From sequence record PZ247578.1: 37,944 nucleotides of DNA; one strand, 5' to 3'. This document shows positions 18,940 to 36,908 of this stretch, one piece after another (position 1 is the first letter of the stretch; the number at the start of each line of letters is the position of its first letter). The stretch is from a phage. A program made the translations under genes and the position numbers. The notes beneath the pieces are model-generated. The model was given only the letters and a program-made list of their open reading frames with translations, was not told the origin of the DNA and made no database searches.

Positions 18940-19824
18940 ATGTCTCAATCAGTTTATGCCGAGTTCGGCGTTAGCTCTAATGCAATCACTGGTTCCGTTG
19001 AGGACCTGAACGAACACCAGAAGTCTATGCTTGAACAGGACGTAGCTGTTCGTGATGGCGATGACGCTATTACCTTCAAGCAACTGGAAGCCGAAAACGA
19101 AGAGGCGACCGAAGAAGACGAGAACGTCGAAGAGACTGAGGGTGCTGAAGACAACGAGTCCGATGACGAAGAGTCTGAGACCGATGGTGAGCAGCCTGAG
19201 TTCATCGAACTAGGTGATGCACCGAAAGAGCTGACTGAAAGTGTCACCGCTCTGGATGAAAACGAAGCTGCATTTGACGACATGGTGTCTTCTGCTGTAG
19301 AAGCTGGCAAGGTCACTGCTGATGAAATTATCGCTATCAAGGCTGAATACGCCAAGGACGGTAAGCTGTCTGACGCATCCTACGCTAAGTTGCAGGAAGC
19401 AGGTTACACCAAGCGTTTCGTAGATTCGTTTGTCCGTGGCCAGGAAGCTCTTGCTGAACAGTATGCTGCTGGTGTGGTTCGCTACGCTGGTGGTGCTGAA
19501 CAGTTTAATCGCATCCTGTCACACCTTGAGTCCAACGACCCGTCAACTCGTGAAGCACTGGAAGCTGCTATCATTCGTAAGGACATTGCTACTACCAAAG
19601 CTCTGCTGAATCTGGCTGGCAAGACTCTGGGTAAAGCTGTGGGTGTTAAACCTCAGCGTACCATCACCACTCAGGCTAAACCTGTGGTCGCACCTAAGGC
19701 TCCTCAGACCGAAGCATTCAGCTCCAAGGCTGACATGATTAAGGCTATGAGTGACCCGCGATACCTGCGTGACGCTAAATACACGATGGAAGTTCGCGCT
19801 AAGGTAGCTGCCTCAAGCCTGTAG
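18940..19824 (+). CDS. Capsid assembly scaffolding protein (gp9 homolog), 294 aa
   Basis: Highly acidic, Glu/Asp-rich; directly upstream of the major capsid gene. Confidence 0.85.
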   Translation: MSQSVYAEFGVSSNAITGSVEDLNEHQKSMLEQDVAVRDGDDAITFKQLEAENEEATEEDENVEETEGAEDNESDDEESETDGEQPEFIELGDAPKELTESVTALDENEAAFDDMVSSAVEAGKVTADEIIAIKAEYAKDGKLSDASYAKLQEAGYTKRFVDSFVRGQEALAEQYAAGVVRYAGGAEQFNRILSHLESNDPSTREALEAAIIRKDIATTKALLNLAGKTLGKAVGVKPQRTITTQAKPVVAPKAPQTEAFSSKADMIKAMSDPRYLRDAKYTMEVRAKVAASSL

Positions 19825-31853: not shown

Positions 31854-34040
31854 ATGTCCACGATTACACAATTCCCTTCAGGAAACACTCAGTACAGGAT
31901 AGAGTTCGATTACCTAGCCAGAACGTTTGTTGTTGTTACGCTGGTGAATAGCTCTAACCCTACCCTGAACAGTGTACTGGAAGTTGGTCGAGATTACCGA
32001 TTCCTTAACCCAACGATGATTGAGATGTTGGTTGACCAATCAGGTTTCGACATCGTTCGTATTCACCGTCAGACTGGAACTGACTTAGTGGTAGACTTCA
32101 GGAATGGCTCAGTGTTGACAGCTAGTGACCTGACCAATTCAGAGCTTCAGGCTATCCATATTGCAGAAGAAGGTCGAGACCAAACGGTTGACTTAGCGAA
32201 GGAATATGCCGATGCTGCTGGTAGCTCTGCTGGCAACGCTAAGGATAGCGAGGACGAAGCACGACGAATCGCTGAGAGTATCAAGGCATCTGGTCGAATC
32301 GGCTATATTACCCGTCGCTCCTTCGAGAAAGGCTTCAACGTTACAACATGGAACGAGGTCCTGCTATGGGAAGAGGACGGTGAGTATTACCGCTGGGATG
32401 GTGCGCTTCCAAAGAACGTTCCTGCCGGCTCAACACCTGAAGCATCTGGTGGTGTTGGCATTGGTGCATGGGTTAGTGTTGGTGATGCTTCATTGCGCAG
32501 TGATTTGACCCTAAGCACTGGCGCACGGCGAGTTGGGACAACATCCGGCAGGACCGTACAGGCAGAGCTTGATATCCTCAAAATGGGGTACAAGACGCTT
32601 GATGACTTTGGTGCAAAAGGTGACGGAAGTACAGACGACACCGCTGCCATATTCAATGCCTTTTCGTGGGCCTCAACCAACGGACTACCACTTAGAGTTC
32701 CAAGCAAACCATATGTTTGGAATGGCGACGTTATTCCATACGATAATGTGACCCTCATTGGTGATAAGCGGCCCTATGCGGATTCAGGGTTAACTCGTCT
32801 TCTTGATGGTAGTATTATCGTAGGTACGCTCAGATTTAGTGGCAAAAACATACAAATCAGCAATATTGGAGTCGATCACGGTTCGTTCCGGTTCCCGTCG
32901 ACAGCTGGTGATGCCCTCATTGTATCAGCCCCTGAAAAATCAGGGCAGTATTGCCTTATAAGAAACTGTGTTGGACTAGGGCGAAATCCAACCGATGCAT
33001 TTCACGCTATTCTGTGTGAAGGTTATAAATATTCAATTATTGAAGATTGCATCGGCATACAGAATACATATAGCATCGCGCACAAAAGTGGTTATTCAAT
33101 CACGAATAATATAATATCCATAAACTCAAACACAGGTGTTATTGTTAAATCTGATAGTGCATTTGGTGATGCCAGTTTCTGTAATATTACCAATATTACC
33201 ATTGATGGAAATGAAAACTGTAATATTGGCTTGTGGGTTTTTGCGCAAGACGCTCAACTACAGAAGGTTAATGTATCTAATATTGTAGTATCTGGATGTA
33301 AATACGACATGGTGGTGCAGGCTGATGCTGGCGTCATCAATGAAATTAACATTAACAATCTGGCAAGCTCTGGGGCATCCATAGCGTCACTAGCACTGGT
33401 GGCTAATGCCGCCGATAAGATATACACCGTAAACATATCAAACATTTCAGCTGGCGAAGTTACAGGGCAAATTATTGATGCGCAGGTAGCTAATTTGCTG
33501 AATGTATCGAATGTTACTGGGCGAATTACCAGCTCATCGACGCACGTCAGTGACTCCATAAAGATAGGGGAATTAGTTGGCGCTTCAAATCTTGTTAATG
33601 TAATTCCCACTTTGAATTACAGTTTAACATCTCAGGCTGGAGTGACTTTTAATAACGCTTTTGAAAATAACAGCATCAGTAATGTTCGCGCTGCTATATA
33701 CGGAAGCGGAGCGCCGCGACCAGGGTATGCAACACAGGGCGCAAGCGGTGTCTCTGGAGTGCTTTCGGTAAGATATAGCCAGACAAACTCGTCATTCATA
33801 AAGCTAACTCTTCCTTCAGGAGCAGCTGAGATAGCTACCATACACACAACAGCCATCAATGGCTCGGTAATACCGGAAGGATATGTATTATGGATACAAA
33901 ACGCCACCTCCGGACAAAACCTAACGATAACTCCTTCTACTGCTGGTCATATCGTTACAACCGGGAATACTCCAAAGGTGTTGGCTGGCGGTGATAAAGT
34001 TGGCTTTATGTTTGATGGTAACACATGGATTCAGATGTAA
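31854..34040 (+). CDS. Tail fibre/tailspike (gp17 homolog): T7-like N-terminal adaptor domain fused to a pectate-lyase-fold beta-helix, probable polysaccharide depolymerase
   Basis: N-terminal approx. 150 aa resemble T7 gp17 (FDYLARTFVVVTL, LVVDFRNGSVL, AEEGRD); downstream LDDFGAKGDGSTDDTAAIFNAF is the pectate-lyase/tailspike signature; many N-x-[ST]/I-rich beta-helix-like repeats; C-terminal two-thirds is AT-rich. Confidence 0.85.
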   Translation: MSTITQFPSGNTQYRIEFDYLARTFVVVTLVNSSNPTLNSVLEVGRDYRFLNPTMIEMLVDQSGFDIVRIHRQTGTDLVVDFRNGSVLTASDLTNSELQAIHIAEEGRDQTVDLAKEYADAAGSSAGNAKDSEDEARRIAESIKASGRIGYITRRSFEKGFNVTTWNEVLLWEEDGEYYRWDGALPKNVPAGSTPEASGGVGIGAWVSVGDASLRSDLTLSTGARRVGTTSGRTVQAELDILKMGYKTLDDFGAKGDGSTDDTAAIFNAFSWASTNGLPLRVPSKPYVWNGDVIPYDNVTLIGDKRPYADSGLTRLLDGSIIVGTLRFSGKNIQISNIGVDHGSFRFPSTAGDALIVSAPEKSGQYCLIRNCVGLGRNPTDAFHAILCEGYKYSIIEDCIGIQNTYSIAHKSGYSITNNIISINSNTGVIVKSDSAFGDASFCNITNITIDGNENCNIGLWVFAQDAQLQKVNVSNIVVSGCKYDMVVQADAGVINEININNLASSGASIASLALVANAADKIYTVNISNISAGEVTGQIIDAQVANLLNVSNVTGRITSSSTHVSDSIKIGELVGASNLVNVIPTLNYSLTSQAGVTFNNAFENNSISNVRAAIYGSGAPRPGYATQGASGVSGVLSVRYSQTNSSFIKLTLPSGAAEIATIHTTAINGSVIPEGYVLWIQNATSGQNLTITPSTAGHIVTTGNTPKVLAGGDKVGFMFDGNTWIQM

Positions 34041-34133
34041 TCTCAGCCTGTGTAGGTAGAGGCTAACTACATGCTGACCAACGTATGGTAACAACTTTGG
34101 GTCACGGACGACCCGCTTTAAACTGGAGGTTTT

Positions 34134-34328
34134 ATGATTGAGTTAGACTTCAAGAATGAGGTCCTTAAAGCCTCTCCTATCGTCGGGACCGCTGCGGCTG
34201 ATGGTGCCAGTCGGTTCTTCTTCGGACTTACACTGAACGAATGGTTCTACGTTGCAGCTATCGCGTACACCGTTGTCCAGATTGGTGTGCTAGTCTACAA
34301 AACGATTAAAGGAGGCGGTAAAACATGA
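34134..34328 (+). CDS. Class II holin (gp17.5 homolog), 64 aa
   Basis: FFFGLTLNEWFYVAAIAYTVVQIG nearly identical to recalled T7 holin. Confidence 0.9.
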   Translation: MIELDFKNEVLKASPIVGTAAADGASRFFFGLTLNEWFYVAAIAYTVVQIGVLVYKTIKGGGKT

Positions 34329-34588
34329 CGCAGATGGACTTAGAGAAGTTCCTCTTAATGCTAGATACTGAACGTGCTCGACTCATGCTGCAAGACCTGC
34401 GGGATGACTCTAAGCGTTCTCCTCAGCTTTACAACGCCATTGAGAAGCTACTGGCTCGTCACAACTTTGTGTTAAGCAAGGTGTCTGTGGACGAGAAGAC
34501 GCTGGCTGATATGGAGGCCCTGAACGCAGAGTATGATAAGGTGCTTTCAGCGACTGAGGATAATGACACCGGGTATGGTGTTCAATAA
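34325..34588 (+). CDS. Terminase small subunit (gp18 homolog), 87 aa
   Basis: Position between holin and Rz as in T7; size matches T7 gp18 (89 aa); SD AAAGGAGG. Confidence 0.75.
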   Translation: MTQMDLEKFLLMLDTERARLMLQDLRDDSKRSPQLYNAIEKLLARHNFVLSKVSVDEKTLADMEALNAEYDKVLSATEDNDTGYGVQ

Positions 34589-34589
34589 G

Positions 34590-34640
34590 TGTTAGACTCA
34601 AGGTCATTACTATATGTAGTGGCCTTTATGGTTAACACTA
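34590..34640 (+). ncRNA. RNase III-like processing hairpin (R18.5 position)
   Basis: TTAGACTCAAGGTCATTACTATATGTAGTGGCCTTTATGGTTAAC; same family as 5483 and 12305. Confidence 0.55.
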
Positions 34641-34689
34641 ACTAGTGGAGGCGACTCTACGTGAAATCTGATAAACCTGGAGGGCAACT

Positions 34690-35139
34690 ATGCTCGAATT
34701 TTTAAAGAGAGCGGCTCCGTGGCTACTTGCAGCAGTGATGTTTGCTGGTGGCTACCACACCGCTAACAATAAGTGGGAGGCTAAGGTCAATGCAGAATAC
34801 ACCTCGAATCTTAAGGCATCGGAAGATACAAGACTTGCTGTCCAAGCTGAAGTCAACAAAGTGTCCAAACGGTTTCAGGACGAAATGTCCTCGCTGGAAG
34901 GCAGCACTGATAGGATTATTGCTGACCTTCAGTCTGACAATAAGCGGCTGCGCATCCGAGTCAAACCTACGAGTGGAGCCACGCAAAGTGACGGTCGATG
35001 CGTCATTGATGGTTACGCCGAACTTGACGAACGAGATGCTAAACGTCTTATCGCCATAGGAGTGAAAGGAGACAAGTGGATTAAGGCCCTTCAGGACACT
35101 GTGAGAGCCTTGCAGCAAGATAAGGAGGTGACGCATTGA
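34690..35139 (+). CDS. i-spanin (Rz-like, gp18.5 homolog), 149 aa
   Basis: N-terminal transmembrane segment [12 protein letters not shown]; charged coiled-coil-like periplasmic part. Confidence 0.85.
34790..35059 (+). CDS. o-spanin lipoprotein (Rz1-like, gp18.7 equivalent) embedded in the +1 frame of Rz; start uncertain
   Basis: +1-frame ORF has a hydrophobic stretch [16 protein letters not shown] then Cys (lipobox-like LTISGC, Cys at about 34949) and a short Pro-containing mature part; first in-frame ATG is 34790. Confidence 0.6.
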   Translation: MQNTPRILRHRKIQDLLSKLKSTKCPNGFRTKCPRWKAALIGLLLTFSLTISGCASESNLRVEPRKVTVDASLMVTPNLTNEMLNVLSP

Positions 35140-36899
35140 GTAAAGACTTAGTGGCGCGTCAGGCGCTAATGACTACCCGTATGAAGGCAGACTTCGTGTT
35201 CTTCCTGTTCGTCCTGTGGAAAGCTCTGTCACTACCAGTCCCGACTCGCTGTCAGATTGACATGGCGAAGAAACTATCGGCTGGGGACAACAGGCGTTTC
35301 ATCCTACAGGCGTTCCGTGGTATCGGGAAGTCATTCATTACGTGCGCATTCGTGGTATGGAAACTGTGGAACAACCCAGACTTGAAGTTCATGATTGTGT
35401 CGGCCTCAAAGGAGCGAGCCGATGCTAACTCCATATTCATCAAGCGAATCATCGACCTCATGCCTCAGCTTCAGGAACTCAAACCTAAGCAGGGACAGCG
35501 AGATGCGGTTATTAGCTTCGACGTTGGGCCAGCCAAGCCAGATCACTCACCTTCGGTTAAGTCTGTTGGTATCACTGGTCAGTTGACTGGTAGTCGTGCT
35601 GACATCCTGATTGCCGATGACGTGGAGGTTCCGAACAACTCAGCGACTCAGGCTGCACGAGACCGTCTGTCAGAGCTTGTGAAAGAGTTCGACGCTATCC
35701 TGAAGCCGGGAGGTACAATCATCTATCTGGGCACTCCTCAGAACGAGATGACCCTGTACCGTGAGTTGGAAGGTCGTGGGTATACCACTACTATCTGGCC
35801 AGCTCGTTATCCACGCGACAGGAAGGACTGGCAGTCTTACGGCGACCGTCTGGCTCCTATGCTTCAGGCAGAGCTGGAAGAGGACCCTGAGTCATTCTAC
35901 TGGCGTCCGACCGACGAAGTTCGCTTCGATGATACTGACCTGAAGGAACGTGAGCTGTCATACGGTAAGGCTGGCTTCGCCCTACAGTTCATGCTTAACC
36001 CGAACCTGAGTGATGCTGAGAAGTACCCTCTGAAGCTCCGTGACCTTATCGTAGCCGACTTGGACCCAGCGTCCAGCCCAATGGTCTACCAATGGCTGCC
36101 AAACCCTCAGAACAAGCGTGAGGACGTTCCTAACGTTGGACTCATGGGTGACTCATACCACACGTATCAGACTGTAGGTTCTGCATTCAGCTCGTACACC
36201 CAGAAGATTCTGGTCATTGACCCTAGTGGTCGTGGTAAGGATGAAACTGGTTATGCGGTACTGTATCAGCTCAACGGCTACATCTTCGCTATGGAAGTTG
36301 GTGGTATGCGTGGTGGGTATGAAGACTCTACGCTGGAAGCCTTGGCTAAGATCGGTCGTAAGTGGAAGGTCAACGAATACGTCATTGAGGGTAACTTCGG
36401 TGATGGTATGTACCTTGAGTTATTCAAGCCTGTAGCGGCCCGTATCCATCCTGCTGCTGTAACTGAAGTGAAGAGTAAGGGTCAGAAAGAACTCCGCATC
36501 TGTGACGTTCTGGAGCCTATCATGGGGTCTCACCGACTTATCGTTAACGCTTCTGCTATCGTCCAAGATTACCAGACAGCCTCTGATAAGGATGGCGTTC
36601 GTAACCCTATCTACTCTCTCTTCTACCAGATGACACGTATCTCTCGTGAACGTGGGGCCTTGGCACACGATGACCGACTTGATGCGCTGGCTATCGGTGT
36701 ACAGTTCTTCGTTGAGTCTATGGCTAAGGATGCCAACAAAGGCGAACGTGAAGTCACTGAGGAGTGGCTGGAGGAACAGATGGAGAACCCACGGAAAGGC
36801 TTCGAGTCCATCCACACTGAGTTCTGGGACAATGGGGTCCGGGTAACTCACGATACGGACGACGAGCTGGGGCTATGGTCCTACGTTACGTTCCACTAG
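35136..36899 (+). CDS. Terminase large subunit (gp19 homolog), 587 aa, probable TTG start
   Basis: Walker A-like FRGIGKSF; N-terminus as in T7 gp19; TTG preceded by TAAGGAGGTG. Confidence 0.93.
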
Positions 36900-36908
36900 C
36901 TGAATGAA

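Follow-up and report, generated by a model that had tools for sequence, protein, structure and literature searches.

In phage sequence record PZ247578.1, a small open reading frame nested within an Rz-type spanin gene has the features of an o-spanin gene, with a lipobox that lies far downstream of its first in-frame ATG. The original prediction, made from the letters of the 37,944-nt window (the whole stretch of DNA analysed) alone, had left two options for this arrangement: either the precursor carries an unusually long leader or translation starts at a non-ATG codon inside Rz. Which codon is used as the start, and what kind of sequence the leader is, are the questions that this locus raises.

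Judged by its ORF map, the window as a whole represents a T7-type genome that is nearly complete and Kayfunavirus-like. Combined with Pfam matches, the map places the late lysis and packaging block of a T7-like podophage at positions 34000–36900 (Table 1), a region with ~98% nucleotide identity to E. coli Kayfunavirus phages such as Baskent_phicoli_1, ST31, PE3-1 and Peacock. Gene order in the block (holin 17.5, small terminase 18, 18.5/18.7, large terminase 19) is as in the Peacock and T7 annotations. The Rz host gene product matches PHROG 1327 'Rz-like spanin' (E=1.2e-60), while its score against Pfam Phage_lysis, 23.4 bits, is slightly below the cut-off; NCBIfam holds no model for either the o-spanin or the i-spanin. 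The literature that we retrieved describes 18.5/18.7 as the Rz/Rz1 equivalents. A promoter and terminator scan and a motif search of the 18–18.5 intergenic region gave nothing above background.

Table 1. Features of the embedded o-spanin gene and of the surrounding lysis and packaging block (window positions)
Feature	Position	Strand	Remarks
Class II holin (T7 gene 17.5 type)	34134–34328	+	Pfam Phage_holin_2_2, E=2.1e-22; upstream member of lysis block
Small terminase subunit (gene 18 position)	34325–34588		Pfam DNA_Packaging_2 match
Rz-type i-spanin gene, T7 gene 18.5 orthologue	34690–35139	+	149 aa, N-terminal transmembrane segment; hosts the o-spanin gene
Shine-Dalgarno sequence GGGAGG for o-spanin start	34775–34780	+	9 nt 5' of ATG; −10.2 kcal/mol
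Embedded o-spanin gene, T7 gene 18.7 orthologue	34790–35059	+	89-aa putative prolipoprotein; +1 frame of Rz
Leader, codons 1–37	34790–34900	+	Net charge +10; probably translated, sequence unconstrained
Internal in-frame TTG, codon 16	34835–34837	+	Alternative start in the Peacock annotation and the SpaninDB EcoDS1 entry
Signal-peptide hydrophobic core and lipobox positions −3 to −1, codons 38–53	34901–34948	+	PROSITE-type lipobox core pattern
Predicted mature lipoprotein	34949–35056	+	36 aa from putatively lipidated Cys54; Ala at +2
Large terminase subunit (gene 19 position)	35136–36899		

The embedded ORF runs from an ATG at 34790–34792 to a TAG at 35057–35059 (89 codons), exactly where it had been predicted, and lies entirely within Rz (34690–35139), offset by 100 nt. 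Its product matches Pfam PF17531 O_Spanin_T7 with 92.3 bits (cut-off 25; E=1.8e-26), a match that covers residues 32–88 only, and PHROG 4306 'Rz-like spanin' (E=4.1e-37) over residues 2–88, with the 84-position profile aligned end to end. Since this second profile spans residues 2–88, annotated members of the family generally include the leader. A C-terminal block that is conserved family-wide, VDASLMV.PNLT..ML.VLS, is also present. The matches to PF17531 and PHROG 4306 rule out a chance ORF at 34790–35059 and, together with the T7-type synteny, bear out the prediction of an embedded o-spanin. We conclude that 34790–35059 is orthologous to T7 gene 18.7, which encodes the o-spanin, the lipoprotein subunit of the two-component spanin at the outer membrane, and is located inside the i-spanin gene 18.5/Rz.

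T7 gene 18.7 belongs to the same profile family, likewise sits within 18.5/Rz, in its +1 frame and between genes 18 and 19, and has the lipobox TISG↓C and the conserved C-terminal motif in common with the gene in the window. It too has a far-upstream Shine-Dalgarno sequence and ATG, being annotated as an 83-aa protein with 48 residues before the Cys. The leader in the window is 5 residues longer than that of T7, a difference made up of one additional codon at its beginning and a 4-codon insertion shared with Rz, and the two leader sequences are almost unrelated. T7 also has in-frame candidate starts that are absent from the window, an ATG/GTG at −31 and a TTG at −21. In close relatives such as EcoDS1 (ACF15829.1) and Peacock, the Kayfunavirus gp18.7 proteins are 92–99% identical, and the o-spanins of Kayfunavirus SH4 (YP_009279774.1) and Pisces are ~68–69% identical, all with identical architecture. 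At the level of ORFs, identities of 94–99% were found in Kayfunavirus phages, EcoDS1 among them. The long leader is thus not special to this phage but is found family-wide and already in T7 gene 18.7. Both the gene and the leader are already known, the latter as a quirk of the family that is unexplained; a SpaninDB curation note on phiA1122 reads 'Too long signal sequence' (Kongari et al. 2018, PMC6139136). A similar arrangement is seen in phage lambda, whose Rz1 is the prototype of embedded o-spanins: the gene lies within Rz in the +1 frame and encodes a small outer-membrane lipoprotein that works together with Rz at the final stage of lysis (PMC6139136). T7-type o-spanins, however, form a Pfam family separate from lambda Rz1. 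Unlike the o-spanin in the window, lambda Rz1 has a short canonical signal peptide of ~19 residues and a proline-rich mature part.

The copy in the window ends earlier than those of its closest relatives. Its TAG at 35057–35059, where they have TCG, makes it two codons shorter; they end in ...LSPSE or ...LSPSD at a TGA at 35063–35065. In Rz, the change from TCG to TAG is synonymous (ATA for ATC, Ile). The two additional C-terminal residues are probably dispensable, because T7 also does without them. An exact-sequence look-up of the 89-aa product, and of the 74-aa product that would start at the internal TTG, found neither in the protein collection searched, probably because this copy ends two codons early.

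The lipobox ISG↓C occupies codons 51–54, with the Cys codon TGC at 34949–34951, and the lipobox-like segment of the original prediction was located at 34901–34951. The distance of about 55 codons after the ATG that had been given for this segment fits the Cys (codon 54) but not the start of the segment, which is codon 38 and lies 37 codons after the ATG. In a pattern scan, the lipobox core pattern {DERK}(6)-[LIVMFWSTAG](2)-[LIVMFYSTAGCQ]-[AGS]-C was matched at the Cys codon at 34949, and a positively charged n-region directly precedes the core (...TKCPRWK, then AALIG). A lipoprotein signal is therefore present by its core pattern; its absence had been named as grounds for dropping the prediction. 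What departs from the usual rule, by which the Cys falls within about the first 35 residues, is its position: counted from ATG 34790 it is residue 54, and counted from TTG 34835 it is residue 39. Because the rule is broken from every usable start, predictors balk at this precursor. LipoP gave no hit on the full-length EcoDS1 orthologue and responded only once the start had been moved (SpaninDB notes, PMC6139136).

The original prediction had also considered that a separate spanin gene might exist elsewhere. We found no credible second spanin in the window. A lipobox scan of the window for a second spanin or lipoprotein gene gave one other N-terminal-type match only, a 59-aa out-of-frame ORF at 19430–19609 (+) inside the scaffold-protein gene (18940–19824), which has a signal-peptide-like start and a lipobox-like IASC with its Cys codon at 19517. 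By tblastn, this ORF was found in 218 records, restricted to Kayfunavirus-level relatives, compared with 1072 for the o-spanin. Its confinement to the genus, and an identity that tracks DNA identity, indicate that it is probably a chance match.

In agreement with the original prediction, the frame has no second ATG ahead of the Cys; it has no GTG there either, and the canonical alternatives in this interval are limited to TTG 34835 (codon 16) and TTG 34919 (codon 44, within the hydrophobic core). We therefore compared the start region across the family. Loci from 16 annotated Studiervirinae and 80 from IMG/VR yielded 91 distinct Rz nucleotide sequences. In 90 of the 91, the window included, a start codon of the embedded frame lies 48–53 codons before the lipobox Cys, and only Pseudomonas phage PPpW-4 departs from this, its ATGs being 38 and 31 codons before the Cys. 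At the homologous start site of these 90 sequences the +1 codon is ATG in 88 and GTG in two. The Rz codon that overlaps the start is AAT, CAT, GAT, AGT or CGT (N, H, D, S or R), always T-ending and followed by G, while T-ending codons account for only 24% of the Asn codons in this phage. A GGAGG-type Shine-Dalgarno sequence is found 5–10 nt upstream of the start in 89 of the 90 homologues, with values of −10 to −16 kcal/mol, GA2A being the sole exception at −7.3 kcal/mol. In the window, the anti-Shine-Dalgarno duplex calculated for ATG 34790 (−10.2 kcal/mol) is comparable to those of the holin (−10.2), Rz (−9.8) and the small terminase (−12.2). In contrast, the duplex at TTG 34835 is weak (−3.5 kcal/mol).

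The reading frame itself points the same way. Across 18 lineage representatives with less than 85% nucleotide identity, stops in the +1 frame occupy 39 of 653 codons upstream of the start and none of the 599 leader codons. A stop falls 0–2 codons before the start in 37 of the 90 sequences. When Rz was shuffled synonymously, the probability of a stop-free leader was 0.06–0.35 per sequence (0.058 for the window), and log10 P summed over the 18 representatives was −13.8, a figure that overstates independence because the lineages are related, although the trend is plain. Moreover, several relatives offer little else: GA2A and locus L056 have no other ATG, GTG or TTG before the hydrophobic core, and any in CR8 and locus L036 lie 46 codons or more from the Cys. 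Comparison of the 90 distinct homologues thus favours ATG 34790 as the translation start, since the start and its Shine-Dalgarno sequence are conserved, the frame is open from there on and several relatives have no alternative. Of the two options left by the original prediction, this supports the long leader over the non-ATG start. The literature searched contained no experiment, by Ribo-seq or mass spectrometry, that maps the N-terminus of a T7-family o-spanin.

We then turned to the leader. In a codon alignment of the 90 Rz genes, Rz third positions correspond to second positions in the o-spanin frame, and their diversity reports on constraint from that frame. In the leader, third-position diversity was 0.061 among close pairs and 0.56 among distant pairs, much as in the Rz-only N-terminal region (0.048 and 0.60); the Rz-only C-terminal region gave 0.18 and 0.66. 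In contrast, diversity fell to 0.002 and 0.23 over the hydrophobic core and lipobox and to 0.013 and 0.31 over the mature part. Per codon, constraint from the o-spanin frame begins at about Rz codons 71–73, which is the start of AALIG, eases across the first twelve or so residues of the mature part and reappears at codons 101–121. Since Rz third positions in the leader vary as freely as in non-overlapped Rz, amino-acid-level constraint on the leader was rejected, and the leader, judged from this comparison, would be translated yet free to vary so long as it remains stop-free.

The basic character of the leader (11 K/R, net charge +10) can be accounted for in the same manner. Stop-free synonymous shuffles of the same Rz segment had a net charge of 9.1 ± 1.4, and 14 other representatives behaved likewise. 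We therefore rejected selection for positive charge as the source of this composition; the richness in K/R results from reading an E/K/Q/A-rich Rz helix one base out of frame. An alignment with 12 Studiervirinae Rz proteins revealed a 4-residue insertion in Kayfunavirus and Helsettvirus Rz relative to T7 and K11 (columns ~56–59; window Rz codons ~48–51, RLAV). Because this insertion lies in the leader-coding stretch, leaders are 36–37 residues long in Kayfunavirus and Helsettvirus and 32 in T7 and K11. The leader thus appears to be a translated by-product of gene overlap, or overprinting.

Our preferred explanation, to which we assign a probability of roughly 80%, is that an 89-aa T7-type o-spanin prolipoprotein is made from the Shine-Dalgarno-served ATG 34790 and that the leader is a passenger. 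Among other starts, the strongest candidate is TTG 34835 (codon 16). Used mainly or in addition, with the ATG idle or minor, it would lead to a precursor of 74 aa whose signal peptide has 38 residues. This TTG is the start chosen in the Peacock annotation, it is used in the SpaninDB EcoDS1 sequence because LipoP then responds, and every close Kayfunavirus relative of the window has it. However, its Shine-Dalgarno sequence is weak, as given above, and it is not conserved outside the genus: in the SH4 group its place is taken by a GTG at −34, and GA2A and L056 lack any internal start. A start at the TTG also leaves the invariant upstream Shine-Dalgarno sequence and ATG, and the absence of stops from the first 15 leader codons in all lineages, without explanation, and it does not bring the Cys into the canonical range (residue 39). 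We consider this start improbable, although it may have a minor role. A near-cognate start (CTG, ATA or ATC) beside or within the hydrophobic segment, for example CTG 34907 or ATA 34910, would yield a short canonical signal peptide, and a GGAAGG-like stretch with a modest −5.5 kcal/mol lies upstream of these two codons. In T7, K11 and Berlinvirus relatives, moreover, a TTG 21 codons before the Cys would produce a textbook 21-aa signal peptide. The codon at −21 in the window, however, is TGT, which is no start; enterobacteria very seldom start translation at CTG or ATA; and a start at 34907 or 34910 would strip the signal of its positively charged n-region. Even where the −21 TTG exists, its Shine-Dalgarno sequence is almost absent (−0.8 to −6.9), and here too the conserved upstream start and open frame go unexplained. 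Near-cognate initiation is accordingly rated as very improbable. The −21 TTG, encoding the L in ..TLPRWKG.. or ..TLRGWRA.., recurs in loci L002, L008, L009, L011, L014, L016 and others (T7, K11, Berlinvirus and MP2 groups), and it is TGT that replaces it in Kayfunavirus. A programmed +1 frameshift from Rz, producing a fusion of the Rz transmembrane domain to Rz1 with no independent initiation, has no direct support; the two frames do share 270 nt, and no stop interrupts the +1 frame from 34742 on. It is opposed by the conservation of an independent Shine-Dalgarno sequence and start codon, by the +1-frame stops found immediately before the start in many relatives, and by the leader region, where third positions are free and no conserved nucleotide element, hence no conserved shift site, is seen. 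Of all the alternatives we hold frameshifting to be the least credible.

A different alternative accepts ATG 34790 and questions whether the leader is a passenger. The far-upstream start and the basic extension of ~32–37 residues could have been selected for length and charge, though not for sequence. Such an extension may, for instance, act as a brake on Sec targeting or on LspA processing, thereby adjusting how much mature o-spanin is present, or when, relative to Rz, or may serve as a cytoplasmic tether of the precursor. The start position is fixed within the sampled Studiervirinae, PPpW-4 apart. A neutral leader might be expected to let the start drift closer to the core in some lineage, and the fixed position hints at a further constraint. 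Two observations are compatible with selection on the extension: the start keeps its position throughout the sampled Studiervirinae although the leader evolves freely, and a Shine-Dalgarno-served start near the hydrophobic core has evolved in no sampled lineage. We regard this possibility as unlikely, if slightly less so than a start at TTG 34835. Should the leader indeed influence the kinetics of lysis timing, specialists in phage lysis would find this moderately interesting. A partial parallel is offered by the ESPR of some autotransporters (e.g. EspP, Hbp), where Sec signal peptides of ~50 residues carry a charged N-terminal extension before a normal n-h-c signal. The ESPR is conserved in sequence and is reported to influence targeting and translocation kinetics. 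In contrast, the spanin leader shows no sequence constraint and precedes a lipobox, which would make signal peptidase II, and not signal peptidase I, the processing enzyme.

Under the passenger explanation, the Shine-Dalgarno sequence GGGAGG at 34775–34780 would serve ATG 34790 to give an 89-aa prolipoprotein with a 53-residue signal peptide, composed of a 37-residue basic (+10) extension, a normal hydrophobic core and the lipobox ISG↓C. The extension would arise because the Rz transmembrane segment is closely followed by the ribosome binding site and start codon, and it would carry no specific sequence requirement. From what is established for lipoproteins and spanins we infer that the basic extension stays in the cytoplasm while the hydrophobic core inserts through Sec, that Lgt lipidates Cys54 and that signal peptidase II (LspA) cuts off all 53 residues. 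Lnt and Lol would then deliver the 36-aa lipoprotein to the outer membrane, where the Ala at +2 predicts it to be sorted. There, the conserved C-terminal ~20 residues of the o-spanin would bind the C-terminus of Rz, and the resulting spanin complex would complete lysis by fusing the inner membrane with the outer one. This scheme presumes that lipoprotein export can cope with a signal peptide of ~50 residues.

Public annotations of these genes disagree. The ATG is called as the start in EcoDS1 and SH4, the TTG corresponding to window position 34835 in Peacock and an internal GTG in Pisces, and in most public records of these phages the o-spanin gene is not annotated. Center for Phage Technology annotators have preferred internal TTG or GTG starts. 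Failure of predictors on what is probably the true precursor tempts curators into moving the start. The useful outcomes of the analysis are an evidence-based choice of start and a leader that can be read as an overprinting by-product. For annotation, the Shine-Dalgarno-served ATG (34790 here) could be applied as a principled start across the T7 family, and the leader would provide an example of overprinting in which a long, highly charged protein segment is selectively neutral.

Several minor features of the region were also noted. An antisense ORF of 137 aa at 34723–35136 (−) is free of stops across nearly the entire Rz gene, which can most likely be put down to codon composition in the two sense frames that overlap here. 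Record MT350292.1, 'Enterococcus phage EFA-1', shows 97.6% DNA identity to this Kayfunavirus-type lysis block, and PV615262.1, 'Acinetobacter phage vB_Aba_01KA', encodes an o-spanin protein that is 96.6% identical. The host labels of both records look doubtful, that of EFA-1 because a spanin would be useless in a Gram-positive host. Finally, the large terminase ORF has TTG as its first codon and shares the 4 nt TTGA (35136–35139) with the end of Rz, including its stop. Its Shine-Dalgarno sequence, AAGGAGGTG, is the strongest in the region at −16.5 kcal/mol, and the Peacock annotation uses the same start.
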